From a virus: a stretch of 64,000 nt of DNA. The notes under the pieces were generated by a model. That model worked only from the letters and a program-made list of their open reading frames with translations, had not been told where the DNA came from and ran no database searches. The stretch covers positions 64,001-128,000 of the IMG/VR virus record IMGVR_UViG_3300045004_000088, one strand, 5' to 3'. This document shows positions 1 through 58,949 of the stretch, piece by piece (position 1 is the first letter of the stretch; each line of letters opens with the position of its first letter). The position numbers were made by a program, and so were the translations under genes.

Positions 1-221
1 AGCGTTCGATGAGCAGAGGCAGGGCAGCGAGCAGAGTGAGGACGGGAAGTGGTACTATCCACAGCACCTGACCGCAAACAAACTGATCGACGGCAATCTG
101 TATTGGCTGTCTCAAAACAACGGCTGCAAGACGGTACAGCACTCGGTCGGCCCGAAGTTGAAGGTTGCAACGTATATACCCCTGGAGGATTTGAGCCGTT
201 TCTTCCAGGGAAAGTAGGAGT

Positions 222-497
222 ATGGAAAAGGGTAAACACCCATTGTCACTTAGCGATTTCAGAAAGTGGATCGAAGGCCAGGACGCCGGGTCCAAGAACC
301 TCGAAGGCAAGAGAGTGTCTTCGGCGTTGTCGCCCAAGAAGCTGTTACAGGTCGCGGAGTCCGATCAGGGCGACCTGTACGAGTCCGTAAGGCAGTTCTA
401 CCGCAAGGGCGGAACTGTGATCAGTCAAGACGGGGACCACCTGTTGATCGACGCGGGGGCAGGCACGTTCTACACCAACCGGAAAAGCGTCCGCTAA
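222..497 (+). CDS. hypothetical protein
   Basis: 91-aa ORF with balanced composition. Converges on the minus ORF 494..886. No recognisable motif. Confidence 0.3.
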   Translation: MEKGKHPLSLSDFRKWIEGQDAGSKNLEGKRVSSALSPKKLLQVAESDQGDLYESVRQFYRKGGTVISQDGDHLLIDAGAGTFYTNRKSVR

Positions 498-886
498 GAC
501 TTCCTCGTCAACATCGTCTTCTTCTTCGGGTGCTTCTTCAGGTCGGCCTTCGGCGGCAGCAAGAAAGAGGTGCCGTCGAACAAGGGTTTGCAACTCGGAT
601 ACAGCCCTTGAAAACCCCTGGCGTGTAGTTTCTTCCTCAACTCTTGGTAGTGTTCGGCCGACTCGATCCACGGCTCCCAATACATGCGATTGTCGTAAAT
701 GATCTTCTCGACACTCGCATGAATCGTCGGGGGCAGTTTCAGAGATTCCAGATCAACGAGTCGGATTGGCGGTCGCTGCGGGCCGTCCAGCACCGTGACC
801 ACTCTGGCCCCCATTTTGTCCCGCCGCGCCAGATACAGGTAACAACGACTCATCAAACCTCGCATTCTAGCTTGTACGACATACAA
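494..886 (-). CDS. hypothetical protein
   Basis: 130-aa ORF co-directional with the downstream LAGLIDADG gene, overlapping its start. No motif recognised. Confidence 0.3.
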   Translation of the reverse strand: MYVVQARMRGLMSRCYLYLARRDKMGARVVTVLDGPQRPPIRLVDLESLKLPPTIHASVEKIIYDNRMYWEPWIESAEHYQELRKKLHARGFQGLYPSCKPLFDGTSFLLPPKADLKKHPKKKTMLTRKS

Positions 887-1710
887 GCCGGCAGTTTACG
901 TTCTTGTGAAATTGTCTTCCATTTAGACAGCAAGAAGTCTCTGCTTTTGCCAAGCATAACTAACTTGTTCTGACCATTTCTGTGTTTGTAATACTTGATG
1001 TACATTGATAGATCTAAGTTTTGATTCAAAATGGACACCGCGTTCTCCAAGTCGATACGATCCCATCCTTTGGCTGATATTGAAGGTTGTGGCGATTTTT
1101 TGAGTCCATTGCTAAGACGGCCGGTTCTGGTAGTCCCCAGGTAGCCATCGTCCATGTACCAAATCATCAACCCGAAAAAATTCAGCTTGGAAATCAAGTC
1201 TACTGGAATTATGCTTTTGTCGCAGTTTTTCCTGGCCTTGTAGAATCGATCTCTCAATGAAGTAAATATCGGATGACGGGCCGTAGAAATGTGCGTCTTT
1301 TTGTTTGAATTCCATCGCGACATGAAAGGCGACAGGATGTTCATTTTCCATTCGAGGTAATCAGTCTGTTTGGAACCATGTCCTTCGCAGAAGAAGTAGT
1401 TTTTGCAGTCGTCGCTTTTGGTCACACAACCATCGCCCAACATACTGCCGATCAGTACCTGAAAAACGCAGTCGTCAAAATCAGACAAGGAAAGGTTTTG
1501 GTCGAGTTTGCAGCCATTGCGAAACCGAGCGGCCTTTTCGCCAGACCTAGAACGACACTCAGCCGTAATAACTACGCCGATTCTGTTCCTCATCTTGGCA
1601 ATGGCAGGTGCAGTATGGCCCGGCAAGCAATCAATTAATTCAGTCGAATGTTTTGACGGCCCAAGCTGACGAAGTAATTCCAACTCGGATTCAGACCACG
1701 GTTTTCCCAT
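853..1710 (-). mobile_element. free-standing LAGLIDADG homing endonuclease (double-motif)
   Basis: 285-aa ORF with two degenerate LAGLIDADG blocks, LIGSMLGDGC and LMIWYMDDGY. Paralogous to ORFs 41000..41614 and 45007..45564. Confidence 0.55.
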
Positions 1711-1912
1711 GAACTATTGTATGCGGCACGACGGGACATTTCTCAACATTCGCATCGCACTTCACCCAAAATCGATTGTTGTTTTTGTTGCCAGGACGCA
1801 GAGCCTCGGCCAGCACCATTTGAATGAGTAATTTCGCATGCGGGTCATCGGCCGCGCCAAAATTACTGAAGAAATCGTCCATCGTTTCTTTGATCAGATT
1901 GGAGTCCGACAT
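1691..1912 (-). CDS. hypothetical small protein
   Basis: 73-aa ORF directly upstream of and overlapping the LAGLIDADG gene start. Composition is protein-like. Confidence 0.25.
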   Translation of the reverse strand: MSDSNLIKETMDDFFSNFGAADDPHAKLLIQMVLAEALRPGNKNNNRFWVKCDANVEKCPVVPHTIVHGKTVV

Positions 1913-2525
1913 GAATCTTCACCTGCCGCGTTACCGCGAAGTCAAAAACAAATACTGTGTGTGCTACTTCGGGCCGTGCGACGAATACGTCACACTACTC
2001 GATGGCCTTCGGCCACAAGCCGAACAACAACTGCCCGGATTGCAAGTGTATATAGGGTGCAAAGAACACCTGTGCAACGGAGAACGGTTCGTCTCCGAAA
2101 AGGCGGCGTTTCAGATGGTCAGGGAACCGTGGGGGACACAATTCGGACATATCAAAGAGATCCGATGCGACATGAAATCACACCCTGTCCAGCAGTTCTT
2201 CAATGATTCGGGAATCAAGATCAACCCAACCGGACACAAACCGGACACGGAAAACAGACTCGTCAAGCTGGCGGCGGAAGGCATATCGCCTACCCGCTCA
2301 CTTACAGAAGAAGAAAAAACAAAGCTGACCAAGAAGTACGCCAGCCAGGGGTACGTCGTCCGAGAGGACTGTGACTGGCGTGACGCGGGCGTCGTTGTAG
2401 GGGTCGAATCGGTCGCTGTTTGGTCGGCCGCACTCGAAGGCAAAATGACGCACCTGTGCGACACCGGATTGGGGACGGGCTTCTTCCGCGTAATCTGTCC
2501 GTGGGGTGCGGTGATTTCTATTTGA
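1911..2525 (+). CDS. hypothetical Cys-containing protein
   Basis: The first ATG is at 1911 (MNLHLPRYREV...). The track ORF starts at a TTG at 1824. This start overlaps the divergent minus ORF start by 2 nt, so the start is uncertain. Confidence 0.3.
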   Translation: MNLHLPRYREVKNKYCVCYFGPCDEYVTLLDGLRPQAEQQLPGLQVYIGCKEHLCNGERFVSEKAAFQMVREPWGTQFGHIKEIRCDMKSHPVQQFFNDSGIKINPTGHKPDTENRLVKLAAEGISPTRSLTEEEKTKLTKKYASQGYVVREDCDWRDAGVVVGVESVAVWSAALEGKMTHLCDTGLGTGFFRVICPWGAVISI

Positions 2526-2579
2526 GTGCTTCTACATATAGACAGAAGACAGGGATTAGGCACCCCATCAAGGAGAACA

Positions 2580-3158
2580 ATGAGCGTATTTCGTGTAAAG
2601 CTGAACAACACTCAGCAGGGCGTATTGGACCTTAACCCGTCCACTGGCGCACAGATGTCGCCGTCGATTCAGCGGACGATGTGGGTCACCGGCCCGAACA
2701 AGACTTACCGTCAACTTTTCGACGGTGAAACCTTCACGGACTGCAACTATTGGAAGCAGTTCGCGTACCCGCAGACGACTCTGGAAAAGGCGTTCATCGA
2801 AGTCGTGACCGACGACGGCAGCATTTACTCCAGTGACCCGGCTGAGAACACCTTCCCTCGTGTTTACGACCTGACCATCGCTGGCGGTTCTGTGTACGCA
2901 TCGAACGTGATCGATGTAACGGGCGACAACGGCGCGGCGGCTGTTTCGGCGAGCATCGAGAACACGAGTGGTCAGGCGATCCGCGTGAAGATGAACGGTC
3001 TTTCGACGGCCATCTTCGACCTCTCGGCGAACGAAACCAAGACCTTCAACATCGGCGATGCCGTCATCAGCCGCTTGGAGTTCAACAACACCGCTTCCGG
3101 CGCGACCACGGCAACCGTGCAGGTCATCCTCACGATCCGCAGCACCCCGACAAGCTGA
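2580..3158 (+). CDS. hypothetical S/T/N/G-rich protein, possibly virion-associated
   Basis: ATG at 2580 is preceded by AAGGAG. The 193-aa product is rich in small and polar residues. It is followed by a rho-independent terminator at 3211..3238. Confidence 0.4.
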   Translation: MSVFRVKLNNTQQGVLDLNPSTGAQMSPSIQRTMWVTGPNKTYRQLFDGETFTDCNYWKQFAYPQTTLEKAFIEVVTDDGSIYSSDPAENTFPRVYDLTIAGGSVYASNVIDVTGDNGAAAVSASIENTSGQAIRVKMNGLSTAIFDLSANETKTFNIGDAVISRLEFNNTASGATTATVQVILTIRSTPTS

Positions 3159-3210
3159 GTACCACCCCTCGGTTTTTGAACCGATGTCTGCCCTTAATGG
3201 CCGGACAGAA

Positions 3211-3238
3211 AGCCCGACAGCAATGTCGGGCTTTTTCG
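3211..3238 (+). terminator. rho-independent terminator
   Basis: Stem agcccgac / gtcgggct with loop agcaat, followed by ttttcgtt. Confidence 0.55.
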
Positions 3239-3261
3239 TTTGAAGGCACTAAACTATAGTC

Positions 3262-4239
3262 ATGAAGATCAAGAGAAAGACACCTTCAAAAGCGCCGGCG
3301 TGGGGTCTTAGAGATTACTACGAGCGACGTGATAGGGTGCTGGTCGTTCGCGACGTTGGTGGCCTCGGCGACATCCTGATGCAAAGGATGATGTTCGAGA
3401 GCTTCAAACGTGTGATGCCCGAATGTCACATCACCTGGGCCGTCCCCCAACAATACTTGGAAGCCGCCGCGAGACATCCATTTGTTGACGAAGTGGTTGA
3501 CTGCCGCACCGTCAACAAAGCCGACTTCACCCTCGTCTACAACATCACCTTCGCGTGCGGCCGGTACGAGAACGCCATCGCACCCAGAGCCGACAAGCAC
3601 CGCAGCGACATCTGGGCCAACCACTGTGGCGTGGTAATTGGCAAGCACGAAATGTATCTCGGCGTAACGGCCGAAGAGAAGAAAGCCGCCCGTCAACTTC
3701 TGCAACGCAGCGTATCGAGTCCGAACGCTCCGATCTTGGCAATGTGTCCCGCGTCGGCTCAGATCGGCAAGGACATGTCGCCGGCACTACAGACGGAAGT
3801 CGTCACGCGAGTTTGGCAGAAGGGGTGCAACGTCGTTTGTCTGCACAACAAGTCCATGCCACACCTCGATCAGATCGGGTGCCGAACCTTGAGCGGCTTG
3901 AACACGCGACAGTGGATAACGGCACTGGACGCGGCCGACTACGTCTTGAGCGTTGACACGTCGGCGTTCCACTGCGCGGGCGGGCTGAAGAAACCGCTGG
4001 TGGGAATTTTTACCTACTGCGACGGAAAAGTGTACGGAAAGTATTTCGACTTCGTACTCGTTCAAAAGCACAGGGACGACAGCAACTGGGATTGCGGCCC
4101 GTGCTTCAACTGGTCGATGTGCAAAAAAGAGTGCAAGAAAACGATCAAGCCGTGTGCGAGCGAGATCACGTCCGACATGGTGATGGACGGTATAGAAAAA
4201 ATGATGGCGAAGTGGCCGTACAAGCCACAAATCGAATGA
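3262..4239 (+). CDS. glycosyltransferase family 9-like (ADP-heptose:LPS heptosyltransferase fold)
   Basis: N-terminal VLVVRDVGGLGDILMQ...ITWAV matches the GT9 (K/R)ILIV..S.GD.L...P...L signature. C-terminal SVDTSAFHCAGGLKKPLVGIF resembles GT9 GNDSGPMHLAAALGKPLV. Confidence 0.5.
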   Translation: MKIKRKTPSKAPAWGLRDYYERRDRVLVVRDVGGLGDILMQRMMFESFKRVMPECHITWAVPQQYLEAAARHPFVDEVVDCRTVNKADFTLVYNITFACGRYENAIAPRADKHRSDIWANHCGVVIGKHEMYLGVTAEEKKAARQLLQRSVSSPNAPILAMCPASAQIGKDMSPALQTEVVTRVWQKGCNVVCLHNKSMPHLDQIGCRTLSGLNTRQWITALDAADYVLSVDTSAFHCAGGLKKPLVGIFTYCDGKVYGKYFDFVLVQKHRDDSNWDCGPCFNWSMCKKECKKTIKPCASEITSDMVMDGIEKMMAKWPYKPQIE

Positions 4240-4281
4240 GAGATACTCGATTAAAATACGCCGGACTTAGGTAAATAGCTC

Positions 4282-4536
4282 ATGCCTCAAGTTATCAAAC
4301 CACAGAACGTGAACATCACGACCCGCGACGGAGAGATAACGGTCAGGTTGGTAATCGACCTGAATCTGAATCTTGGTGGCGGTGTGGTGGGAATGTCTGT
4401 GGCGTCGGTAGCGAGTGCGGATCAGGTGCCTGAGCAAAAGCAGATGGCACCGAAGCCCGCAGAGGCAGCAGAGTGGATGATACCTGAGTTCACACCATCC
4501 ACCGAAACGATTGAATTCGGAAAGTACGACAAGTGA
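4282..4536 (+). CDS. hypothetical small protein upstream of the actin-like ATPase
   Basis: 84-aa ORF, co-oriented with the actin-like gene and overlapping the extended frame of that gene. Confidence 0.3.
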   Translation: MPQVIKPQNVNITTRDGEITVRLVIDLNLNLGGGVVGMSVASVASADQVPEQKQMAPKPAEAAEWMIPEFTPSTETIEFGKYDK

Positions 4537-4570
4537 GATCGAAAGACCTCAAAACGAAAGGGTGAAAGAC

Positions 4571-5581
4571 ATGGCAATCGGATTTGACGTTGGCACATAC
4601 AACCTCGTATGCTCCAAGCGTGACGAAAAGGGAAACTTCGTTCACAAGCGCGAAGTCAACGCATTTATCGAGATTCCTCTCGAAAACGACTTCGTCTACA
4701 ACATGATGAATAACGCTGGTGTCCCGCTGATCAAGAGGGACAAGTTGGCTTACGCCCTCGGCGAGTCGGCGGTCAAGATGGCCTACGCGATCAACTCGAT
4801 GGAGTTGAAGCGGCCGATGTCGGACGGGTGCGTGAACCCGAAGGAAAAGGAAGCCTACCAGATCTTGAGCATCATGATCCACTCGCTGATCGAGACGGTG
4901 AAGGAGGACAAGGAGCCTCTCTACTTCTGCGTCCCGGCCAACGCAATCAACGTCGAAACGGACGCGAACTTCCACCGCCTGACGCTCGAAGGCATCTTCA
5001 AAGCCTTCAGGAACAAGGACGGAATGCGAGTCGATCCGCACCCGATTAACGAAGCCCTCGCCCTCGTTTACGCCGAACTGTCGAAGAAGGCGTACACGGG
5101 AATCGGGATCAGCTTCGGGGCCGGTATGGTCAACCTGTGTATGGCCATGTTCGGCAACCCCGTCTTCTCTTTCGCAATCGTCAACAGCGGAGACTGGATC
5201 GACAAGCAGGCGGCGCGAGCCACTGCCGAGTCGCCGACCTTCATCAACAAACAGAAGATGAAGATCGATCTCTCGAAAGCTCCCGGTGACCTCATCGAAC
5301 GGGCGATCATCAGCCAGTACCGGCTGATGATCGAACACTGCGTATCCGAAATCAAAAACGGCCTGAACAAGAACAGCAAAGTCGTAAGGACGGACGACCC
5401 GTTCGACATCGTTGTTTCCGGTGGGACCAGTTCGCCGCCCGGTTTCGTGGAAATGTTCAAGACTGTTCTGGACGACGCCAAGCTGCCGATCAAGGTGAGC
5501 GAAGTGATCCGTCCGCAGGACACCTTGTACAGTGTTGCTCGTGGGTGTCTGCTCGCTGCCGAGGCGTCAACCCGAAAGTAA
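4571..5581 (+). CDS. actin-like ATPase (ParM/Alp/MreB superfamily)
   Basis: MAIGFDVGTYNLVC matches the phosphate-1 motif DxGxxNxK. GIGISFGAGMVNLCM matches phosphate-2. VVSGGTSSPPGF matches the adenosine GGG motif. Length is about 336 aa from the ATG at 4571. Confidence 0.65.
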   Translation: MAIGFDVGTYNLVCSKRDEKGNFVHKREVNAFIEIPLENDFVYNMMNNAGVPLIKRDKLAYALGESAVKMAYAINSMELKRPMSDGCVNPKEKEAYQILSIMIHSLIETVKEDKEPLYFCVPANAINVETDANFHRLTLEGIFKAFRNKDGMRVDPHPINEALALVYAELSKKAYTGIGISFGAGMVNLCMAMFGNPVFSFAIVNSGDWIDKQAARATAESPTFINKQKMKIDLSKAPGDLIERAIISQYRLMIEHCVSEIKNGLNKNSKVVRTDDPFDIVVSGGTSSPPGFVEMFKTVLDDAKLPIKVSEVIRPQDTLYSVARGCLLAAEASTRK

Positions 5582-5600
5582 CAAAGATAGGAATCCCAAA

Positions 5601-6254
5601 ATGGATGAGACGAAAAACAAACCCAACATCAACGACCTGTTGGATCAGCCCAGGCTCCGCAAGCCGACGCTTGAGGACATGAAGACCGCAGACGACTTCG
5701 CCAAAGAGGACGAAGTCCAGAAGAACATTGACGACTGGAAGGCCGGCAAACGCAAAACAGAACGGGCCAAGTACACCAAAACCGAAGCCTACCCGGAACT
5801 GCCGAAGGGCAAGCTGCTGTTCCAGTGCGAAGAGTACGAGCAGCCGAAAGAGTACATCACGCTCACGATGAACGAGAACAAGGATCTGATCAAAAAGATC
5901 ATGGACGAGAAGGGGGCGCTCACGGACCACCCGCCGATCCCAGTGGATGAAATCAAGTGGGGCATGGAGAGCCTTGAGAACATCTACAGTGCCGTTCAAG
6001 AAGTTTTCCCAGATCCGAAGAAGGTGGAGGCCAACGACAACCGCATGTTCGAGTTGATCTCCAAATACATGGGTGGAGGCGTGGTGACATACAACCGCTG
6101 GAAGAATAAGTTGTGTGTCAAGGGCATCGAAACCAAGTTCGACATGCGTGAGATAAACGCGGCCGTGACCGCTCTGTCGGCGATCCTGCCGCCGCGAGAG
6201 GCTGAGAAGGTCGTGGCGCGTGAGTTGGGCAAGAAAATCGCAAACGTGCTATGA
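5601..6254 (+). CDS. hypothetical charged protein, possible actin-partner
   Basis: ATG at 5601 (MDETKNKPNINDL...). The product is K/E-rich. The gene ends immediately before the hairpin 6264..6288. Confidence 0.4.
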   Translation: MDETKNKPNINDLLDQPRLRKPTLEDMKTADDFAKEDEVQKNIDDWKAGKRKTERAKYTKTEAYPELPKGKLLFQCEEYEQPKEYITLTMNENKDLIKKIMDEKGALTDHPPIPVDEIKWGMESLENIYSAVQEVFPDPKKVEANDNRMFELISKYMGGGVVTYNRWKNKLCVKGIETKFDMREINAAVTALSAILPPREAEKVVARELGKKIANVL

Positions 6255-6263
6255 ACAACAAAG

Positions 6264-6288
6264 AACCGGGGAGCATGCTCCCCGGTTC
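6264..6288 (+). terminator. 11-bp perfect stem-loop, no U-tract
   Basis: aaccggggagc atg gctccccggtt, followed by caagaaggaaggcaaATG, the RBS of the next gene. Confidence 0.35.
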
Positions 6289-6302
6289 AAGAAGGAAGGC
6301 AA

Positions 6303-6764
6303 ATGAAAGAAGGAACAAAAGGTATCCCGATGCCGGTGAGCGACCTCGGCGTAGCCGCGTACATGGCCATGAAGGGTTGCGCATTGTCTGGTCGTCGCGA
6401 CAAGACGATTTTCTTTTACGTCCCGGCCGAAAAGCTCAAGGAGTTCAAACGGTGGAAGCTGGACTACCTCGTGAGTGAATTTCACCGCTTCGACCACTGC
6501 CTGATGTCTTTGAAAAAGGTGGATGAGTCCGACCCCGATCAAGACTTTTCGTCGTGCAAGTTCCTGACCGATCTGGGAGCGGCGGCGTATGTGTTGATGC
6601 ACAACTTCAGGATCATCGGGCGGCGCGGCAAGTCGTTCTACTTCGAGATCAACGACGACGACGAGGCCAAAAACTTTGACGAACTCAGGCTCCAGTACGT
6701 CACCAGTGAGTTCCACGAGTTCGACTCGTCTCTCATGTCGGTTAAGAAAATCGGAGAGTCTTGA
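6303..6764 (+). CDS. protein made of two tandem copies of a ~70-aa domain of unknown function
   Basis: Internal duplication: DLGVAAYMAMKGCALSGRRDKTIFFYVPAEKLKEFKRWKLDYLVSEFHRFDHCLMSLKKV versus DLGAAAYVLMHNFRIIGRRGKSFYFEINDDDEAKNFDELRLQYVTSEFHEFDSSLMSVKKI. Confidence 0.45.
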   Translation: MKEGTKGIPMPVSDLGVAAYMAMKGCALSGRRDKTIFFYVPAEKLKEFKRWKLDYLVSEFHRFDHCLMSLKKVDESDPDQDFSSCKFLTDLGAAAYVLMHNFRIIGRRGKSFYFEINDDDEAKNFDELRLQYVTSEFHEFDSSLMSVKKIGES

Positions 6765-6983
6765 GAAACATCACCCTCTTGTTGAAAGAGGCGAAAGCCA
6801 AATTCCCAATTGGGACCGATTTGGAATGCAACGGGTACATCTGCACGGTACACGGCTATCAAGCCGTGTGCGTGTCCAGTATCCTGATGTTCGAGAGCAT
6901 AATGCTCGTCATCGTGGGACACCCGTTTTTGCAATCCATCAACTTTGAAATTGGTTCAGCCCCTCTAAATAATCAGGGGGATT

Positions 6984-8672
6984 ATGCTGAGAACAATCGA
7001 TTTGTACGAACAACTGAGCTTTTTCGAGGGGAGCAAGGACTTCGCCTCCGAACTAGAAGCTCTTTACCAGCAACTGGCTTCCGTCAGAAGAAATCTGGAC
7101 CAGAAGGTCGTCGGACTCGTCAACGATTTGCAAACGCAGATCATGAACGACAAGCTGCCTTCCAAGCGAGGGTTCTTTACCCGCGTTCACAACTGGTGGA
7201 AGAACCTGTTCGGTAGCGACCGTCGTTCCAACCCGTACTACTGGCAAAACAAGATCGGCGCACTCGGCCGCACCGACCTCGAACCGCCCACCGTCCGCGA
7301 ATACGCGATGCTCAAAAACCTCGCGGACACCCTGTGGGAAGACGCCTCCGCAGCACCACAACCACTGATCCGAAAGATCCTAAACAACTGGACCGCCAGA
7401 CTCCGTCAGACCATCGCGTCCAGTTTGGACGACATGATGAATCGCGTTCGCAGTATGGCAACTCGTGTGGGCAGTACACCAGCACCCGAAAAGCCTCGTC
7501 CGACACCGGAGCCGACGCCGGAACCAAGAACGCCGACTGTGCATGATGACGATTTCGTGCCTGGGTCTGCCGCCGATGATGAGGGAGACGACGGCAGTAC
7601 AGCCCCGCTAAAACCGGCCGAAAAACCCGAACTGACTCTCGATAAGCAGGCTGAAAAATTTGGCATATTCAAAGACACCAGAACCACTTTTGGTATCTTC
7701 GGAAAACTCGATGATTCCAAGAAAAGACTTATTATTGGTGCTTGTCGTTCTGGACATTGTCCGAAAAATGACACGGCTGAAGACAAATACCCACTGAAAG
7801 AAATCCACGCTGCGACTAACAGATACTTGGAGCTTTTCAGGCAGAAGAAAAAGAAGGGTGACGCATGGAGTGGTCTGAACACCAGAGAACAGGAGATTCT
7901 CCGAGCGATACACGAGCCGTGGAACAAACTTGGCAAACGAAAGAATCTGCATAACAATCGCGGAAACAACGGCAAGCGGATAACTAACCGCAGCCAAAGT
8001 GGTCCGTTTACTTTGCCAAAAGTATTGCGAATTGATGATCCGAGGCACGAGATCCTCAGCAAATACTATCCCGAATTTTTCAATCAGTTGGATCTAGCTG
8101 GTCGTGTCGAACGACCGGACGATACCGAAGACAAGGTTACGAAACGAATTGCAAGACTTCTCAGAAAAGACAAAGAAGAGGGTCATCGTTCGGAAGACGA
8201 AAAGCCAGAGGTTGGCGACCGCGCCGAGATTCACAATATGTCCGATGAAAACCCAAAGGACACCGAAAAGCGGTCGGACTTCGATGACTTGAAAGCACTT
8301 TCGTCCCACGATAAAAGCGACAATTTTGAAGACAATCCAGAAACGGCTGCTGTCCAACAACGGCTCTACGAACCCCAATACGAAGAGTTCGCCTCCAAAA
8401 TTGAAAAGGTTGTCAAGACGGATCGTGAACTGGTGAAAAAGCTGATGGACACATGGGATCACATATCCGATAGCAAGACTTTAAGGAGAAAATTCTTGAA
8501 GTTGATTGAGGCCGGTAAGTACAAAGACATCCAAGCAATGTCCAGCGAGAAGAAAAAGAAGAAAACCTATGAAGACGATGACGAAGAGGTCAAAAAGCAC
8601 TTCGGCGAAGGTGTGTCGGGTTTCAAACAGAAGATGAGGGCGGTGTCGGAAAGGATCTATCGCGAGTCTTAA
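6984..8672 (+). CDS. large low-complexity charged protein
   Basis: 562 aa, including a Pro/Thr/Glu stretch PAPEKPRPTPEPTPEPRTPT and K/E/D-rich regions. No enzymatic motif recognised. Confidence 0.45.
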   Translation: MLRTIDLYEQLSFFEGSKDFASELEALYQQLASVRRNLDQKVVGLVNDLQTQIMNDKLPSKRGFFTRVHNWWKNLFGSDRRSNPYYWQNKIGALGRTDLEPPTVREYAMLKNLADTLWEDASAAPQPLIRKILNNWTARLRQTIASSLDDMMNRVRSMATRVGSTPAPEKPRPTPEPTPEPRTPTVHDDDFVPGSAADDEGDDGSTAPLKPAEKPELTLDKQAEKFGIFKDTRTTFGIFGKLDDSKKRLIIGACRSGHCPKNDTAEDKYPLKEIHAATNRYLELFRQKKKKGDAWSGLNTREQEILRAIHEPWNKLGKRKNLHNNRGNNGKRITNRSQSGPFTLPKVLRIDDPRHEILSKYYPEFFNQLDLAGRVERPDDTEDKVTKRIARLLRKDKEEGHRSEDEKPEVGDRAEIHNMSDENPKDTEKRSDFDDLKALSSHDKSDNFEDNPETAAVQQRLYEPQYEEFASKIEKVVKTDRELVKKLMDTWDHISDSKTLRRKFLKLIEAGKYKDIQAMSSEKKKKKTYEDDDEEVKKHFGEGVSGFKQKMRAVSERIYRES

Positions 8673-9025
8673 TGGAGTCCGGCCAGTTTGGACAAGGCAT
8701 TGACATCGACCAAATTATTCGACGGCGGGGGCGTAGTAGCCATCCGCCGTTTTGCTTCGATTTCGGCAATGACCGTGGCGTGTTCGGGATTGGCAGAATC
8801 CAGAATCTGTTCTTCGGCGATGCCGACGATCTGGCTGTAGAAATAGTAGTTGCAGCAGCCCGTAATGGGGTGCTGCGTCATAATTCCCATCGAATCGACC
8901 GACTTGACGATCCCGACGAAGTAGTCGCACTTCTGTCGCTCGTCAAAGTCGCGGTTGATGGGTCCGGTGAAGATGCTGACGGCCTTGCCGACAAAGTATT
9001 TGAGGTTTTCGAGAGCTTCTTTCAT
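8669..9025 (-). CDS. hypothetical protein
   Basis: 118-aa ORF co-directional with the downstream primase. The opposite-strand ORF 8672..9043 is taken as its shadow. Confidence 0.4.
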   Translation of the reverse strand: MKEALENLKYFVGKAVSIFTGPINRDFDERQKCDYFVGIVKSVDSMGIMTQHPITGCCNYYFYSQIVGIAEEQILDSANPEHATVIAEIEAKRRMATTPPPSNNLVDVNALSKLAGLH

Positions 9026-10056
9026 TTCAACCTAGCTGAGTAAGCAGCCGCGCCGAACGGCGACTCACTGTCGAGTGTGGTTTCGGCGCGAAGGACATAC
9101 TCATAGAGAATCTTCGTGCCGAATTTCTTCAACATGTCGTTCCAGTCGTTGTACCCTTCCGGCGGTTGAACCAGTCTCAACTTGTCTTTGCCGAACCGCA
9201 GACTGATGCTCATGATCTTCTGAGCCATTGCCATCGAACCCTTTTCGCCCGCCTTGTCGCGGTCCAGACAGATGACAAGCTTGTAGTCCTTGAGCAGAAC
9301 GGCCTGCTTCTCGCTCAGGTTTTTGCCGCCCGCCGCCGCCCCGTTGAAACCGCACAGCGACAGGCTCTTGCTGTTGAACTCGCCTTCGCAGAGGTGAACG
9401 GTCGAGCCAAGAGCGGGCCAAACGCCTCCCGGCATGAAGACCACGTCTTCCTTGCCGACGCCGATCTCTTTCTCCGGGCCGAGATACTTCAACTTGGATT
9501 TGCCGATGTGACGACCGTTGAAATAACAGAGATCGCCATCCCGGTCGTAATACGGTAGGATGATCCGTGCCTTGTACTTGCCGCCGGTGCAGATGTAAAG
9601 CCCGTCGTGCGGGATCTTGCGTTCGGCGAGGTACTCACGGGCCTTGTCGCCCCACCAGCCGCGCAACCCGTCGATGGCGTAGCACTCGTCCGGCAGGGAG
9701 ATGCGAACTTTGGGTTTGTTCTCGATGAACGGCCGGTCGGCCGCTTCCATCAGTTCTTCGACCTGACGTTCGAGTTCGCCGAGGTTGGCTTCCCCCTTCA
9801 AAATGGCCGAGGCTTCGTCGTAGGGGATCTTGTCAACCAACATGACGAGCTTGACGAGCGACCCTTTGTTGTCCGTCTTGAAGCAGTGGAACACGCCGTT
9901 CGCGCGTTTCTTTTTACCGCCAGACGGACTGCACCAGAGGTGGTAGTTGTGGTCGGACTCGAAAATGGAGTTGATGCGGATCTCTTTCCCCTTGACAATG
10001 GCGTCGGGGAAACGGTCCTGCACCCAGTGTTTGAATCGACCGAAATCAATTGCCAT
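9022..10056 (-). CDS. DNA primase (zinc-binding domain + TOPRIM)
   Basis: The N-terminus contains HLWCSPSGG...GVFHCFKTDNKG, a CHC2-type zinc ribbon. The central LVICLDRDKAGEKG is a toprim D-x-D motif. Confidence 0.6.
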   Translation of the reverse strand: MAIDFGRFKHWVQDRFPDAIVKGKEIRINSIFESDHNYHLWCSPSGGKKKRANGVFHCFKTDNKGSLVKLVMLVDKIPYDEASAILKGEANLGELERQVEELMEAADRPFIENKPKVRISLPDECYAIDGLRGWWGDKAREYLAERKIPHDGLYICTGGKYKARIILPYYDRDGDLCYFNGRHIGKSKLKYLGPEKEIGVGKEDVVFMPGGVWPALGSTVHLCEGEFNSKSLSLCGFNGAAAGGKNLSEKQAVLLKDYKLVICLDRDKAGEKGSMAMAQKIMSISLRFGKDKLRLVQPPEGYNDWNDMLKKFGTKILYEYVLRAETTLDSESPFGAAAYSARLK

Positions 10057-10099
10057 GACTAATCCGAATCAAAGGGTATAATGCTGGTTGGAGGTACTC

Positions 10100-10903
10100 A
10101 TGAATCCCGAAGACGCACCGAAATCCGAATTCCTGACCATCGAACACATGTCGGTGAGCCGCTACGGGGTTTGGGATCTCTGCAACCAGCAGTACAAGTA
10201 TAAGTATCACCTCAAGGTGGTATCTGACAAGCCCGAAGCGTGCTACTTCATCTACGGCAAGATCGTCCACCGCGCCGCCGAGGAGTATGTCCGACGCAAG
10301 GGCAAGACCCCCATTCTACACTGTGCCGGCGAAGTTTTCGCGGGAAAACTGCTCCTCGAAGACGACCAGAAGGTGCCGCCCAAACTGCCGGTCGAGTACA
10401 GCAAAGAGCAACTGATTTCACACCTGCGTGCCATCGAATCGCTCCACCAGAGGATCGGATTCAGTGGTGAAATCGAATGGCCGTTCCTGTTCGACCTCGA
10501 CCCGCCGCACAAGCGGTGCGTGAAGGGCTTCATCGACCGGCTGGTGTTCACGAAGGACAAGGAACGGGCGTACATCATCGACTACAAGACCAGCAAGAAG
10601 AACAAATGGCGGAAGACGAAGGCGAACGTCAACTACGACCTCCAGTTGCGGACCTACGCGATGGTCGTGAACCGCACCTTCGGGATCGCCCCGGAGAAAA
10701 TCCGAGCGGCCTTGTTTTACCTTGAAGGTGCCGAACTGGTTGACGCCACTTTCACCCAAGAGAGCATTGACTCGGCCGCGACCGAACTGCTAACCTCTTT
10801 CAAGCAGATCCAGTCGATGCGACCGGACGAAGTCTGGGGAAGTCCGGGCTACCACTGCGAACGGTGCGATTACGCCACGATTTGTCCGTTCTTCGGAGGA
10901 TAA
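10100..10903 (+). CDS. PD-(D/E)XK nuclease, Cas4/RecB-like with C-terminal Cys cluster
   Basis: GGAGG sits 6 nt before the ATG at 10100. GFIDRLVF...YIIDYKTSKK is the PD-(D/E)XK core. One N-terminal Cys plus C-terminal CERCDYATIC give a Cas4-type 4-Cys arrangement. Confidence 0.6.
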   Translation: MNPEDAPKSEFLTIEHMSVSRYGVWDLCNQQYKYKYHLKVVSDKPEACYFIYGKIVHRAAEEYVRRKGKTPILHCAGEVFAGKLLLEDDQKVPPKLPVEYSKEQLISHLRAIESLHQRIGFSGEIEWPFLFDLDPPHKRCVKGFIDRLVFTKDKERAYIIDYKTSKKNKWRKTKANVNYDLQLRTYAMVVNRTFGIAPEKIRAALFYLEGAELVDATFTQESIDSAATELLTSFKQIQSMRPDEVWGSPGYHCERCDYATICPFFGG

Positions 10904-10906
10904 GGG

Positions 10907-11422
10907 ATGTTCGAGCAGAAAGAAAAGCTGTTGATCGTCAACCACGTCATCTATCTGACCCCGGAGCAGCGAAAAACTCTGGTAGAGGAACGCCAGCAAG
11001 TTGCGGCTATCGGCATCAGCATCCCGGTGTGGTTCGATGACAACAAGGGATCGGCACCGGCGCGAGAAGTGTTCTGTCAGTACACGGTCACCAACGAACC
11101 GAAGACCCTGATGGTTGCCGTTACGCCGAGCGGCTACAGGATCAACCTGACGCAACCGAAGCCCGACGACGAGGAAACGCCGGATTACAAGAGACTGGGA
11201 AACAAAGAGGGGATGGGCTGGCTCAAGTTCAAACAACTCCAAGTGGTCGAAGCCCCCAACGGCAAAAAGAGCAAGGTGCTTCACTACGTCGAGATTCGGG
11301 ACTGGGAGTATTTCTGGGACTCCGTCAACTGGCGGGGCAGTACCGAAGTGACATGCCCATCCGCATGTTCACCGAGTCCCCAGACTGAACCGTTACCGGA
11401 TTCGTCAGCTTCGCGCTGCTGA
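10907..11422 (+). CDS. hypothetical protein
   Basis: 171-aa ORF with balanced composition. Confidence 0.4.
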   Translation: MFEQKEKLLIVNHVIYLTPEQRKTLVEERQQVAAIGISIPVWFDDNKGSAPAREVFCQYTVTNEPKTLMVAVTPSGYRINLTQPKPDDEETPDYKRLGNKEGMGWLKFKQLQVVEAPNGKKSKVLHYVEIRDWEYFWDSVNWRGSTEVTCPSACSPSPQTEPLPDSSASRC

Positions 11423-11855
11423 TCAATACGCCCGTCGTGTTTGGTTTATCTGACAAGAAGATGTTGCTGCACGGTCCCCAACTCCCGCCGACCGCCGAGA
11501 AGGTCACGATCTGACTCGACACCTGATGCACCCCGCCCGAAACCGTCATCGAGAAGCCGGTCGTAGAATTGACCGGCTGACGTGAATACCCGTTGATGAA
11601 CGGCTCGTTCTGCAAGCTCTCCATCGTATCGCCAATTGCCAGAATCGTCCTGTTGTCCAACCCCAAGTAGTAGTTGTTGGGGATGTATGTGTTCGGCGCG
11701 TTGCCGCCCAGGAACAGGGCGTTCAAAAGGAACTGCTCGCCCAGAAAGTGGAGTGTGTTGAGTACGTTCTCCTCGCGGTAGATCACGCAGCCGTCGCGGA
11801 CCTGTTCGAGAGAAAGAATCGTCATGATGCCGGGCCAGGGTTTCTTGGTTTCCAT
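11325..11855 (-). CDS. hypothetical protein
   Basis: 176-aa ORF rich in N, G and S. Its start faces a divergent intergenic region that carries a TATATAAG motif. Confidence 0.35.
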   Translation of the reverse strand: METKKPWPGIMTILSLEQVRDGCVIYREENVLNTLHFLGEQFLLNALFLGGNAPNTYIPNNYYLGLDNRTILAIGDTMESLQNEPFINGYSRQPVNSTTGFSMTVSGGVHQVSSQIVTFSAVGGSWGPCSNIFLSDKPNTTGVLISSAKLTNPVTVQSGDSVNMRMGMSLRYCPAS

Positions 11856-11906
11856 GCCGTATATAAGTTAGTACGAATGACGTTTTGGAGATTTCAGGAG
11901 AAACCA

Positions 11907-12176
11907 ATGACCTTCGCCGAGTACGTCAAAATGAGAGAGACGGCGGGCGATTCGTGGGGAACCGCACCCGCGCCTCCGGTCCAAATCATGTTGGGACCGA
12001 ACGCACCCATTGCCGGCAACACCAAAGGTGCCAGACCACCCGGCAAAGAAGAACAGTTCGGCAAAGAGAAGAAACGCAAAAAGCCGCCGCGAGAGATCAC
12101 ACAACCGAGCTACGACGACCGCGACCTAATAAAACGGAACATGTATAGGGCCAAAGAACTGGGTGTCAACCCGTGA
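11907..12176 (+). CDS. small basic protein
   Basis: AGGAG precedes the ATG at 11907. The product has a K/R-rich C-terminus (KEKKRKKPPREI). Confidence 0.35.
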   Translation: MTFAEYVKMRETAGDSWGTAPAPPVQIMLGPNAPIAGNTKGARPPGKEEQFGKEKKRKKPPREITQPSYDDRDLIKRNMYRAKELGVNP

Positions 12177-18329: not shown

Positions 18330-20255
18330 ATGCCAACAACTCCCTCCAAGTGGCGGGGTCAGTACAAGTCGCTCAAGGAATACTACGACAACGTGGTCTA
18401 CACCAAAGACGATCACGAGGTCGAAGCCCGGCCGGAACTATTGGGGCAGAAGAAGTTCCCGGCCGAATACTTCGAGTTCGACCGCTTCCAGTACGCAATC
18501 GACCCAGACGAGACGATGGAAGAGGTCGATGCTTACTCAAAAGCGAGACAAGACCAAGAAACCATCAAGTGTAAATACAGCTTTTCCTACTGGTGTCAGA
18601 AGTACGTCAAGATTCTTCACCCGATGAAGGGTTTGATCCCCTTCATGCTCTACAAGTACCAGAACAAGGTAATCCGCGACTACGAAAACAACCGCTTCAA
18701 CATCATCTCGAAGTTCCGGCAGGGTGGGCTGACGACGGTGACGCTGATTTGGGGTCTGTGGCGGGCGCTGTTCCAGACCGACCAGCAGATCATGTTGCTG
18801 TCCAAGACAGACCGCGAAGCGACGGACATCGGGATGATCGTGGACCGCGTCGTGGAATACCTGCCGTCGTGGATGAAGCCGGACAAGAATGCGGGCAAGT
18901 GGAACGACCACTTGAAGCAGATCAAAGAAACCGGCGGCGCTCTCAAATTCTACTCGCCGGAAGCTGCCCGTGGTAAGTCGGTGACGTTTCTCATCATTGA
19001 CGAAGCGGCCTTCATCGACAACATGGAGTCGCACTGGAAGGCTATGTGGCCGGTGCTTTCCACAGGTGGTAGCTGTACGCTCGTGTCAACGGTTAACGGC
19101 CTCGGTAACTGGTACGAAGAAACTTTCCACGGGGCCAAAGAGGGTCGAAACAAGTTCCACGTCATCGAGTTGGACTACTGGGAACACCCCGATTACAACG
19201 ATCCGGTTTGGGTTGAAGACCAGAAGGCACAGCTTGGCGAACGCGGTTTCGCCCAGGAAGTTTTGCGTTCGTTCCTCGGCTCCGGTGAAACGTATATTCC
19301 GCCGCACATTCTGGCAGAACTCGACCGCCAGACACGAGATCACACGCCGATCCGCAAGGCGTTCAAACAGTGGACGAACAAGGCGACTCGTGCCGAAGAC
19401 GTTGAAGCAGTCAAGGGACTGGCGCGGAACGAAAAAGAGATGGAGAAGTTGGACAATACGCCGGGGCTGGTGGCGTTCCAGCGTGGCGCGTTGTGGATCT
19501 GGCGAGAAGCCATCGAGGGTCACGAGTACATCGTGTCCGCTGACGTGGCCGAAGGTATGGGCGAGAACGGCGACAACTCCAGTTTCCAAGTCATCGACTG
19601 TGCGACTCTGGAGCAGGTGGCCGAGTTCTACTCGAACACGGTGCCGCCCTACATCTTCGCCCAGATTCTGAACGAGATCTCGTTGTACTACAACACCGCG
19701 TTACTCGTGGTCGAAGACATGGGTCCGGGTGTTGCCGTCTTGAGCAACCTTCAGAATGAGTTGTTCTACGAGAACATGTACTACGACGAGAAGGGTGCGA
19801 AGACCGGCAAGGCCGGCATCAAGATGTCTCGCGTCAACCGGCCGATCATCCTCGAAGCTCTGCAACAGCGAATCTTGACAGGCACGGTACAAATCAACTC
19901 TCGCCGTCTGGTCCGCGAGTTGAAAACGTTGGAGTATAACCCGACGACGAAACGTGCGGAAGCTCAGAAGGGCAAGCACGACGACGCGGTCATGGCGTTG
20001 GCAATGGCGCTCTACGTCCGCGACCAGATCATGCGGGACATCCCGATGGGTGCCGACGTACCGAGCGAAGTCATGGACACCTTCAAGAGTCAGACTTACG
20101 AAGACATCAAGAGGGAGATTCTCGAAGGCGCTCCGAAGAACTGGATCGAAGAGGCACCCGACTTCTTGGCGGGCGAGCGTGGCGGCATATTGCCGGGCAT
20201 CATCCTGAACCACCGACGCAAATTCGACACACTGCTCAAGGAATTCGGCTGGTAA
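18330..20255 (+). CDS. terminase large subunit (T4 gp17-like)
   Basis: AGGAG precedes the ATG. ISKFRQGGLTTV is Walker A-like and TFLIIDEAAFI is Walker B. The 641-aa length and its position heading the head module fit. Confidence 0.8.
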   Translation: MPTTPSKWRGQYKSLKEYYDNVVYTKDDHEVEARPELLGQKKFPAEYFEFDRFQYAIDPDETMEEVDAYSKARQDQETIKCKYSFSYWCQKYVKILHPMKGLIPFMLYKYQNKVIRDYENNRFNIISKFRQGGLTTVTLIWGLWRALFQTDQQIMLLSKTDREATDIGMIVDRVVEYLPSWMKPDKNAGKWNDHLKQIKETGGALKFYSPEAARGKSVTFLIIDEAAFIDNMESHWKAMWPVLSTGGSCTLVSTVNGLGNWYEETFHGAKEGRNKFHVIELDYWEHPDYNDPVWVEDQKAQLGERGFAQEVLRSFLGSGETYIPPHILAELDRQTRDHTPIRKAFKQWTNKATRAEDVEAVKGLARNEKEMEKLDNTPGLVAFQRGALWIWREAIEGHEYIVSADVAEGMGENGDNSSFQVIDCATLEQVAEFYSNTVPPYIFAQILNEISLYYNTALLVVEDMGPGVAVLSNLQNELFYENMYYDEKGAKTGKAGIKMSRVNRPIILEALQQRILTGTVQINSRRLVRELKTLEYNPTTKRAEAQKGKHDDAVMALAMALYVRDQIMRDIPMGADVPSEVMDTFKSQTYEDIKREILEGAPKNWIEEAPDFLAGERGGILPGIILNHRRKFDTLLKEFGW

Positions 20256-22183: not shown

Positions 22184-24742
22184 ATGACACCAGTTTGGGC
22201 AGACTTTTTCAAGATCTTCACCTACCAGTTCGCTCCCGACCCCTACAGCAGACGGGCGAACACACGCGACCTTTCGGGTGCCGGCGTAACACAGCCGGAC
22301 GCCATCCCGATGATGGGGCCGGACGGCAGCATGTCCGGCAGCGGCGACTCCCGCCTCGTCAGGTTCCGCGATACCAATGAAATGATCGACCTCTCGTCGG
22401 TCAGTAACCGCCAATCACGATACAAGGAATACCAAAGACTTTTGGGCGTCCCAGAGATCGACCGCGCGTTGACAGTGTTCGCAGACGAAGCCTGTCTCGC
22501 GGGGTGGACGAAGGTGCAAACGCCACATGGCGAATTCACAATCGAGCAACTCGCCAAGACGCGGGCCAACGACCGCTTCCTCGTCTACTGCTACGACCAC
22601 AAGGCCGAGGACTACACTCTTGGGTGGGCTTACGCTCCGAGGAAAACCAAGACCGCCAAAACGCTTCAACTGGTCTTCGACAACGGCAAAATCCTGACGC
22701 TCACACACGACCACCGGATCATGACCGGCAAAGGAACATACGTTCAGGCTAGTGATGTGAAGATCGGCGATGAGATGATGCCGTTCTATCGGCTGCGTCC
22801 GAACCCCGAATTGAACAAATTGAAAACCGGGCAACAGCCGAGGATCTACTCGCACCGCAAAGGGTGGATCAACGAGCGGCAGTTCGTTGACGATTGGAAA
22901 TCCGGCAAGACTCAAGAGCGGTACGAGGAGGCCAACAAGATCTCCCGGCTCGCGGCCGGCGGCTTGGTCATGGAGCAGATCCTGAAACAGATCCCGCATG
23001 ATTGGAAGACGATCAAATTGCGGCTGGCGCGGACTGGCTTCACATACAAGGAGTTGAAGAAACTCGGCGAGAAAGAAAAAACCAGACGCATCGTTGACAT
23101 CCGGCCGGGGCCGGAAATTGATGTGTACGACATGAGCGTGGAGAAGCACGAGAACTTCTGCACAGACAGCATCGTGGTACACAACTGCCAGAAGGATGAG
23201 TTCGGCAACCTGTTTAAGATCGAGTGCAGCAACCGCGAGGTCGTTGAAGAGGCGAAGCACTTCTTCTTCCACCGTCAAATGTTGAACATGAACCGCAAGG
23301 CGTGGGCCGAGTTCAGGAAGCTGTGTTTGTTGGGCGACCTGTTCTGGGAGGCGATCATCAACCCGGAGCGGCCGGGCGACGGCATCGCGAACTTTGCCAG
23401 CTTGCCGGCCGAGTCGATGTACCGCATCGAAACAACGAAGGGCAAGCTGATCGAGTTCCAGCAGGCGCGAGAGGGGCCGGACTACAACGCCCTGGTCCGT
23501 GCGCCGATCATGCAGGCCAATGACGCCGAAATTGCACAAAGCACCGCCATTCGGTTCGCGCCGGAACAGATCGTTCACATCAGGATCGGCGACAACCGAA
23601 AAACGTTCTACCCGTATGGCGTCTCGCTGGTTGAACCCGCTCGCGGTCCAGCACACCAGTTACGTTTGATGGAAGACGCGATGTTGGTGTACCGGCTTTC
23701 GAGAAGCCCGGAGCGGCGTGTATTTTACATTGACGTTGGACAACTCCCACCGTTCAAGGCAGAGGCGTTTGTCGAGCGTCTGAAGGACCAATTCAGGAAG
23801 AAGAAGGTGGCGACCAACAGGTCGCCGTATCAAGGCGCGAACCAAGTGGAAGAAAGGTGGCACGCCCCGGCCGTGGACGAGGACTACTGGTTGCCGATTC
23901 GCGGCGACTCGCAGACCAAGATCGACACGTTGCCGGGAGCGCAGAACCTCGGCGAGATCGATGACGCCGTATACTTCCGTAATAAATTGTTCGTAGCATT
24001 GAACTTCCCTCCGAACTACCTGAGCAACGAAGACCCGAACGCAACGAGGATCACGTTGTCGGCTCAGGACGTGAAGTTCGCGAGGATGATCGAACGGTTG
24101 CAGGGCCACTTCGAGGACGGCCTGTGGGAAATGTTGGACAGACACCTGCAAATGATCGGGTATCCACCTGATGTGTACGACGACTTGGTGATCAAGATGA
24201 CGCCGCCAAGCGATTGGCGTGAACTGAGCCGTGCGGAGACGACGAACAACCGGGTGACGACGGCGAGCAGCCTGAAGTCGGCCCAGTTGATGTCGGACTA
24301 CGACGTTCACATTCGGTATCTGCGTCACTCCGAGGAAGAAACCGAGGAAATGATCGCGAGGCTAAAGATTCAGAAACTTGAGGAACTGAAGCTGCAAATC
24401 TTGGCACAGAACCCGCAACTATTGGGCGTGGGTACTCCGGGTACTGAAGGCCAAGACGGGCAGGAAATAGGATCTCAGGCCGGTGGTCCGAGTCCGATGT
24501 TGGGTGGTGACCCGGCAGCGGGCGGGGCTGGCGGTGCTGCACCGCCTCCGGGTGGTGGACTGGCGGCTGAGGAACCGCCGGAAGGTGGTCCTGGGAACGC
24601 GACACCGGACGCGCAGAAACCTCAAGGAAAGCCGCTCGCCGATCCTGAAGAAGAGGAGATCATGAAGTACGATCTCGAAATTCAGGACTACGACGCTGAA
24701 CAAGATGTGGAAGACATCGACTACAGCGTAAACAACGAGTGA
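22184..24742 (+). CDS. portal protein (T4 gp20-like), intein-containing precursor
   Basis: The extein aligns with T4 gp20. [33 protein letters not shown] parallels [74 protein letters not shown] parallels [42 protein letters not shown]. The C-terminal tail is acidic. Confidence 0.85.
   Translation: [852 protein letters not shown]
22493..23185 (+). mobile_element. intein (231 aa) inserted in the portal gene
   Basis: Block A is CLAGWTKV, starting with Cys. Block B is [11 protein letters not shown]. Blocks F/G are [12 protein letters not shown]...VVHN, followed by the +1 Cys (CQKDEF). The flanking exteins are continuous with the T4 gp20 alignment. Confidence 0.7.
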
Positions 24743-33108: not shown

Positions 33109-33142
33109 TCACGGGTTCGGCGAACCAACAGCAACAAAAAGA

Positions 33143-33178
33143 AACCCCGGCCAAAAGCCGGGGTTTTCTGCGTTTTTG
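33143..33178 (+). terminator. rho-independent terminator after the capsid gene
   Basis: Stem aaaccccggc / gccggggttt with loop caaaa, followed by tctgcgtttttg. Confidence 0.65.
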
Positions 33179-35277: not shown

Positions 35278-35306
35278 AAAAACCCGGCAAATCGCCGGGT
35301 TTTTTC
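35278..35306 (+). terminator. rho-independent terminator
   Basis: Stem acccggc / gccgggt with loop aaatc, followed by tttttc. Confidence 0.65.
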
Positions 35307-46013: not shown

Positions 46014-46100
46014 ATGAAACAACCGACGAGGGCGTGCCTCGTCGGTCAGAAGGGTACGCTTTACATCGACGCAAAGCGTGGAAACGTCTCATCCTTCGGC

Positions 46101-46136
46101 AAACCACGGGTTCACGCCCGTGGTTTGTTTTTTTGG
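46101..46136 (+). terminator. rho-independent terminator
   Basis: Stem aaaccacggg / cccgtggttt with loop ttcacg, followed by gttttttt. A second hairpin lies upstream at 46023..46045 (ccgacgagg gcgtg cctcgtcgg). Confidence 0.7.
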
Positions 46137-58897: not shown

Positions 58898-58949
58898 GGC
58901 ACCTCCTACTCCTAGTATAGTTAGGCTCGCTATTACAAAACGGAGACAC

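Follow-up and report, generated by a model that had tools for sequence, protein, structure and literature searches.

The window analysed here is a stretch of 64,000 nucleotides (nt) from a virus, positions 64,001 to 128,000 of the IMG/VR record IMGVR_UViG_3300045004_000088, and the subject of this report is a small gene cassette within it that is built around an actin-fold ATPase. Four open reading frames (ORFs) follow one another on the + strand, with intergenic gaps of 34, 19 and 48 nt, and all are present as described in the initial annotation, which was made from the sequence alone. The nucleotide motifs DVGTYN, GAGMVN and SGGTSS that it placed in 4571-5581 were also located. Some details needed adjustment. 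The hairpin between the last two ORFs does have a perfect 11-bp stem but begins one base earlier than reported, and the K/E-rich protein encoded at 5601-6254 is indeed charged in composition but has 217 amino acids (aa), not 218. The features are as follows.

4282-4536, + strand: small conserved partner, 84 aa, acidic, isoelectric point (pI) 4.6
4571-5581, + strand: actin-fold ATPase, Volactin family member, 336 aa counted from the ATG
4586-4603, + strand: phosphate-1 motif DVGTYN, in the ATPase
5045-5062, + strand: connect motif PINEALA, in the ATPase
5117-5134, + strand: GAGMVN of the phosphate-2 motif GISFGAGMVN, in the ATPase
5417-5434, + strand: adenosine motif SGGTSS, in the ATPase
5601-6254, + strand: accessory 'slot' gene for a 217-aa protein whose C-terminal domain (~100 aa) is conserved and whose N-terminus varies
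6263-6288, + strand: GC-rich hairpin, perfect 11-bp stem and 4-nt loop, immediately 3' of the slot gene
6303-6764, + strand: tandem-domain protein, the conserved downstream partner, 153 aa, two orphan alpha/beta domains of ~70 aa
6984-8672, + strand: frequent downstream neighbour, 562 aa, highly charged, rich in proline and acidic residues, mostly of low complexity

A TTG at 4511 would lengthen the ATPase ORF, but the start used by homologues of 333-337 aa corresponds to the ATG at 4571.

A volactin-type actin

Judged by its sequence, the ATPase belongs over its full length to the Volactin family (PF25216), and this assignment replaces the ParM/Alp-like label given to it initially. The Pfam scan yields 233.8 bits against a cut-off of 35, with residues 1-330 aligned to profile positions 1-321 of 321. 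Identity to a family member from Halogeometricum is 37% over the full length (BLASTP, E 2e-72), and tblastn finds 34-37% identity on replicons of Halogeometricum, Natrinema and Haloarcula (E 6e-61 to 6e-56); the two such proteins scanned, from Halogeometricum and Haloarcula marismortui, score 436-447 bits on PF25216. Secondary Pfam matches of the ATPase are to MreB and Actin, both under cut-off, e.g. MreB_Mbl with 23.4 bits against a cut-off of 27 in a partial alignment of residues 55-132. Hsp70 and sugar-kinase families are absent from these side matches, no ParM-type Pfam family is found at E<=0.1, and a PHROG match is lacking.

A profile of 41 homologues detects no solved structure related by sequence in the PDB at E<0.5, and the fold was therefore approached through an AlphaFold2 (AF2) model (predicted local distance difference test, pLDDT, 81.5; predicted template modelling score, pTM, 0.82). 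Foldseek places MreB (E ~3e-13, template modelling score, TM, 0.65), MamK (TM up to 0.71) and BeeR at the head of the matches, followed by eukaryotic actins and Arps, EutJ, ParM and crenactin. Every one of the best 27 matches is to a filament former or a relative of actin (MreB, MamK, BeeR, actin, Arp); ParM structures come at ranks 35 and 42, with TM 0.50-0.52. Clustering with Hsp70 or sugar kinases had been named at the outset as the outcome that would speak against a polymerising actin. No such protein is among the 50 structural matches listed, so that outcome was not found, and the structural and Pfam neighbours are instead polymerising actins. The model thus lends support to an actin-fold ATPase of the polymerising branch.

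Residues of the nucleotide site that are invariant across 41 phage homologues are D6, G8, T9, E161, G183, G185, G284 and G285. The N-terminus, MAIGFDVGT, has no extension, and five residues precede the phosphate-1 Asp. Of interest are several close homologues (63% identity; P0227, P0235 and P0236) that are ~700 aa long and carry a Hint/intein domain with a LAGLIDADG endonuclease inside the phosphate-2 motif, near residue 183. Inteins typically occupy conserved sites of important proteins, and the insertion thus suggests that the motif is a functionally important site. Also within the ATPase coding region, at 5304-5333 (+ strand), is a perfect 12-bp palindrome, CGATCATCAGCC-AGTACC-GGCTGATGATCG, which is probably fortuitous because it is not conserved in relatives.

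The conserved core

Which of the neighbouring genes belong with the ATPase? Proteins of the window were compared by tblastn with 83 related loci, and were found as follows.

ATPase: 83/83 loci
Tandem-domain protein: 81/83 loci
84-aa ORF: 79/83 loci
Upstream 210-aa protein: 74/83 loci
GT9-like glycosyltransferase: 56/83 loci
562-aa protein: 55/83 loci
Primase: 46/83 loci
PD-(D/E)XK nuclease: 43/83 loci
217-aa protein: 3/83 loci

The two loci without the tandem-domain gene stop before its position, and the gene is present in all 81 that have downstream sequence. Where the small ORF is missing, a contig end or an insertion accounts for four of the five loci, and one (L080) is an apparent real exception. 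The conserved core is the small ORF, the ATPase and the tandem-domain protein. The K/E-rich 217-aa protein, which the initial annotation had also named as a partner, is not one of the conserved partners.

The 562-aa protein is tentatively considered part of the module. Its gene follows the tandem-domain gene directly in the 55 loci, with 22-51% identity, and is preceded by a promoter-like site at 6945-6973; the protein has no Pfam or PHROG match. Short AT-rich motifs are also seen ahead of the small ORF when the 83 loci (L001-L083) are compared. In the sub-lineage of the window, GTAnATAG lies 5-8 nt before the ATG (window 4265-4281), and in other loci AACTATA(T/A)T lies 15-25 nt upstream, a motif that also occurs before the GT9-like gene at 3250-3258. 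These motifs may be phage promoter elements.

The two conserved partners

The 84-aa protein family was aligned from 32 distinct sequences. It begins with a strand-rich motif, MPQ(L/V)IKPxxVxIxTxDGE..LxLN(I/L)NLN, continues with a variable charged linker and ends in the motif W.IP(D/E)F..S..I.FGK; the window protein has no Pfam or PHROG match. In most loci 0-19 nt separate its stop from the ATPase start, a spacing that suggests coupled expression.

The tandem-domain protein is characterized by the motifs DLGAAAY.LM ... G(R/K)(R/K)GK ... Y..SEFH.FD..LMSLKKIGE. Its two-copy build, proposed in the initial annotation, is borne out both by a single-domain profile, which matches 6303-6764 twice (106 and 112 bits), and by the AF2 model (pLDDT 93.3, pTM 0.85), which has two beta-alpha-beta-beta-alpha-alpha units. 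A ribbon-helix-helix, winged-helix or helix-turn-helix (HTH) fold was not found in the model, and the pI is 6.1. The initial remark that the partners do not resemble ParR-type adaptors agrees with this, as no ParR-type fold was found.

A search with the domain profile returns 346 proteins, many of which have one domain only (72-80 aa) and are encoded on contigs of 327-669 kb. In the one relative checked, a single-domain copy stands at the same position, directly downstream of the ATPase (L105, 6001-6240), and the phage LR756511 has a single domain of ~79 aa downstream of its actin (L104, 9806-10042). The single-domain and tandem forms point to a duplication or fusion event within the clade. 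From the single-domain relatives it follows that the working unit is probably a dimer, which in the window is fused into a pseudo-dimer.

Some resemblances of this domain were considered and set aside. The family has a weak PDB-profile match (E 0.004) to Rsd (regulator of sigma D), which explains the JGI label on some homologues; Rsd is all-helical, whereas the AF2 model, which is confident, shows beta-strand in the matched region, and the match is therefore rejected. LidA_Long_CC is marginal in some homologues (27-30 bits against 26.5) and gives 12.7 bits with the window copy, and is spurious or uninformative. A likeness of the ~70-aa domain to DUF5659 is supported by no Pfam match.

Neither partner is found beside the bacterial homologues of the ATPase, and no partner gene was seen among the annotated neighbours at two haloarchaeal loci. 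Both partners are lineage-specific and co-inherited with the ATPase.

The slot gene and its hairpin

The 217-aa gene occupies a variable slot and is accessory. Of 81 loci, 17 have a gene of 183-349 aa between those of the ATPase and the tandem-domain protein; in the remainder the distance from the ATPase stop to the tandem-domain start is mostly <140 nt. The slot proteins have a common C-terminal domain of ~100 aa (BLASTP E 1e-6 to 3e-49) and differing N-termini. That of the window has 38 K+R and 40 D+E, i.e. 36% charged residues, and no significant Pfam or PHROG match.

The hairpin at 6263-6288 reads GAACCGGGGAG-CATG-CTCCCCGGTTC. It is followed by AAGAAGGAAGG and then by the ATG at 6303, with 14 nt to the next gene and no T-run on the + strand. 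By estimate, ~0.1 perfect 11-bp hairpins are expected by chance per 64 kb; the window as a whole has ~24 perfect hairpins of >=9 bp, against ~1.6 in shuffled sequences. Examples are those at 33142-33166, 35278-35304 and 46100-46127, and several of the window's hairpins are canonical terminators with T-runs after genes, e.g. that of the capsid protein. A terminator reading of the cassette hairpin was rejected: the scanner calls it on the - strand only, where no gene ends. Strong GC-rich hairpins of unrelated sequence follow the slot gene in most of the slot-bearing loci examined (L001, L003, L004, L014-L016, L019 and L035), and the hairpin is mostly missing from loci that lack the gene. Since the hairpin tracks the slot gene, it is part of the accessory gene and not of the core. 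The hairpin noted initially as a cassette element thus exists, but it belongs to the slot-gene module. Because the T-run is lacking, a role in that module as an RNA 3'-end, stability or attenuation element is probable.

Spread of the family

A large protein collection contains 1694 homologues of the ATPase, the best 120 of which are 65-95% identical to it and are found on contigs of up to 673 kb. In IMG/VR, at least 211 loci of the ATPase clade are present on contigs of up to 533 kb, and identity of the gene across viral contigs is 63-95%. When representatives at 50% identity are searched exhaustively, 952 clusters match at E<=1e-3, and 251 do so at E<=1e-30. Among deposited phages the ATPase matches only LR756511 (60%) and LR745208 (485 kb, 33%). 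Plasmids with the family amount to 5 of 72,556 records, and all are haloarchaeal megaplasmids.

A query with the single protein found no members in cellular genomes, and a diverse alignment was required to detect them. Chromosomal members with 32-41% identity to the phage protein then appear in bacterial metagenome-assembled genomes (MAGs; e.g. L095, L096 and L086). At least eight of these MAGs are Planctomycetota (contigs of 275 and 154 kb), and others are Desulfobacterales, Omnitrophica, Acidobacteria, Patescibacteria and Fermentibacteria. One protein from Desulfobacterales and one from Planctomycetota were scanned, and both score on PF25216 as well. In Desulfobacterales the volactin gene adjoins radical-SAM, TPR and ArsA-like genes. 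One bacterial homologue (P0350, 1160 aa) joins Volactin to Wzz, GNVR and a ParA/BY-kinase domain in a single chain, which ties the actin to polysaccharide chain-length machinery. The phage protein is thus about as far from the archaeal members as from the bacterial ones, and it is not a recent host capture.

A 13.7-kb phage contig (L084, JAYVUD010000122.1) with full cassette synteny and a 68% identical actin has been assigned to a Chloracidobacterium MAG; unless this is a binning error, it hints at the host.

With a broader motif scan, volactin-family genes turn up on at least 558 additional viral contigs, of up to 436 kb. The best 80 of these (L109-L188) constitute a second viral clade, which is like LR745208 (L103, 329426-346391). 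Its conserved neighbours are of ~464, 186, 215, 401 and 152 aa, the last zinc-ribbon-like. Pfam and PHROG annotation of the volactin neighbours in this clade gave nothing, and the 84-aa and tandem-domain partners are absent from it.

Phage context

The marker genes present show that the window is from a huge phage of T4-like type. LR756511, an uncultured phage of 595 kb, has a capsid protein that shares 78% identity with the one encoded here. Relevant genes outside the cassette are listed below.

31636-33108: gp23-type major capsid protein, a T4-like marker
22184-24742, + strand: gp20-type portal with an intein (Pfam Portal_T4, and Intein_splicing at residues ~154-334)
18330-20255: large terminase
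9022-10056, - strand: DnaG-type primase
10088-10903: PD-(D/E)XK exonuclease
853-1710, - strand: free-standing LAGLIDADG homing endonuclease, upstream of the cassette (Pfam LAGLIDADG_2, E 4e-21)
2526-3158, + strand: 210-aa beta-rich protein without a family match, 38-79% identical in the 74 loci that have it

A canonical terminator at 3209-3234 stands between the gene of the 210-aa protein and the cassette. Where it is found among the 83 loci, the GT9-like glycosyltransferase gene lies directly upstream of the cassette. The window also encodes other enzymes besides; together, the glycosyltransferases (GT9-like and GT1-like), a class-III aminotransferase and a subtilase occupy 3262-4239, 24780-25859, 47033-48334 and 58896-60152, all on the + strand.

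What might the cassette do?

The best explanation, to which somewhat better than even weight is given, is that a phage-encoded polymerising actin and two lineage-specific partners organise the infected cell. The ATPase most likely would bind ATP and form filaments there. The 84-aa acidic peptide would regulate or cap the polymer via its C-terminal motif, and the dimeric orphan-fold protein would couple the polymer to cargo. In some lineages an accessory slot gene with its own hairpin lies between the ATPase and this putative adaptor. By analogy with PhuZ and AlpC/AlpA, the system would position phage DNA replication or virion assembly, and the conserved primase and nuclease neighbourhood fits a replication-linked role. 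The founding volactin, HVO_2015, forms dynamic filaments in vivo (PMC10869688). On this explanation these phages, the largest known, probably assemble an actin cytoskeleton of their own in the host. The initial proposal of a phage actin-based positioning system is thus retained as regards an actin ATPase in a phage, but not as regards plasmid-type partition.

Several observations weigh against the explanation. HVO_2015 is the one family member for which filament formation has been shown (PMC10869688). Searches around the cassette gave no binding sites or repeats, and a cargo-binding or DNA-binding fold is recognisable in neither partner. The phosphate-2 motif (GISFGAGM) has Ser where most actins have Asp, a variant that is family-wide. 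Hints of an envelope or shape role also come from the GT9-like neighbour (56 of 83 loci), from the bacterial homologue with Wzz and BY-kinase domains and from the action of the archaeal founder in cell shape (PMC10869688).

These hints lead to the main rival, an envelope or shape function, in which the phage actin remodels the host envelope in the manner of MreB or volactin together with the adjacent glycosyltransferase, e.g. by enlarging the cell for very large virions. The founding member controls the rod-to-disk transition in Haloferax (PMC10869688), MreB is among the nearest solved structures, and the fusion with Wzz/GNVR/BY-kinase machinery and the upstream GT9-like gene add to the case. 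The ATPase, however, has no N-terminal amphipathic helix, and its neighbours are phage genes without mreC-, mreD- or rodZ-like members. In 27 of the 83 loci tblastn finds no GT9 gene, so the GT9 link is not obligatory, and the primase and nuclease are likewise conserved neighbours. This function is considered unlikely, though the least so of the alternatives.

Does the cassette instead segregate DNA, as ParMRC or Alp-type systems do? The phage genome would then be partitioned as a low-copy plasmid in a carrier or pseudolysogenic state, with the tandem-domain or the 217-aa protein as centromere-binding adaptor. The order of the ATPase and a small partner after it resembles parM-parR, volactin dynamics have been compared to those of ParM (PMC10869688), and the prophage system AlpC/AlpA is reported to operate in such a manner. 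The initial annotation had proposed a search for iterated centromere-like repeats, and none were found in or near the cassette: scans for direct, inverted and tandem repeats give only chance-level short matches in 2400-9100, and Tandem Repeats Finder on 1-12000 gives only two-copy arrays of 9-12 nt, all outside the cassette. The tandem-domain fold, with its pI of 6.1, is neither ribbon-helix-helix nor winged helix, the plasmid members of the family are few and haloarchaeal only, the phage is T4-like, and ParM is a worse structural match (TM 0.50-0.52) than MreB and MamK (0.65-0.71). The lack of repeats and of a ribbon-helix-helix or HTH adaptor, the near-absence from plasmids and the T4-like phage together make ParMRC-type partition improbable. 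More doubtful still is a non-polymerising ATPase of the acetate and sugar kinase/Hsc70/actin (ASKHA) class, a chaperone, kinase or EutJ-like protein that is an actin in looks only. EutJ does appear at Foldseek ranks 28 and 30, the Ser in phosphate-2 replaces the usual Asp, and a sequence relative in the PDB is lacking at E<0.5. These points are set against the 27 better structural matches, all to filament formers or actin relatives, the secondary Pfam matches to MreB and Actin and not to Hsp70 or sugar kinases, and the polymerisation of the family founder in vivo (PMC10869688).

Novelty and significance

Phage actins (AlpC) and the Volactin family are already known. In the literature covered, huge phages do not appear to have been described as conserving a volactin-type actin together with dedicated partners: an actin homologue is unmentioned in the huge-phage survey, in a jumbo-phage comparative genomics paper and in a 2026 review of jumbo phages, and wider searches for phage actins, at the level of titles and abstracts, gave only AlpC and plasmid-prophage reports. 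Phage cytoskeletons have so far been mainly the PhuZ tubulin of nucleus-forming jumbo phages and one prophage actin, AlpC. The cassette points to a further group of uncultured huge phages, very large and distinct from these, with a well-conserved volactin-family actin and partners of its own. If the actin polymerises, it offers a handle on how infection is organised in phages with genomes of 0.5-0.7 Mb, and its partners would supply new actin-binding modules. Volactin would also go from a haloarchaeal curiosity to a family that extends across bacteria, archaea and viruses. All components of the cassette are small and amenable to heterologous expression.

Comparison with known systems

Among known systems, volactin HVO_2015 of Haloferax volcanii belongs to the same family and has the same motif set, including the GISFGAGM variant of phosphate-2. 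HVO_2015, however, is a cellular protein, apparently essential and tied to the rod-to-disk change (PMC10869688), whereas the window gene is viral; and the window cassette has two partner genes, which archaeal and bacterial loci lack. MreB and MamK are the nearest solved structures and are of comparable size (~335 aa), but the window ATPase is only 15-20% identical to them, is without an N-terminal membrane helix, and has no MreCD, RodZ or MamJ-like genes as neighbours. Type II ParMRC and the cassette both place a small conserved gene after that of an actin-fold ATPase, in the same orientation; the cassette differs in the absence of parC-like repeats and of a ribbon-helix-helix adaptor, and the family is virtually absent from plasmids.

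AlpC/AlpA of the Corynebacterium prophage CGP3 represents the closest functional precedent, a phage actin-like ATPase with a dedicated adaptor gene. Efficient viral DNA replication is reported to depend on it (PMC4446434, PMC5539076). AlpA is reported to bind alpS DNA sites in a ParMRS-like system, whereas for the cassette neither repeats nor a DNA-binding fold were found. AlpC also appears to belong to another ATPase family, and CGP3 is an integrated prophage, whereas the window comes from a huge T4-like virus. PhuZ of the Chimalliviridae jumbo phages is similar in being a phage cytoskeletal polymer that is kept across a jumbo-phage clade and is reported to position replicating phage DNA; but PhuZ has a tubulin fold and works with the chimallin nucleus, and the window protein has a predicted actin fold. 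Could the volactin polymer, with its bipartite acidic peptide and dimeric adaptor, both new as proteins, constitute a third, independently evolved phage cytoskeleton after PhuZ and AlpC? This broader proposal, in which T4-like phages of up to ~670 kb would need the polymer for replication or assembly and volactin-type actins would have been exchanged among archaea, bacteria and viruses, is given less than even weight.

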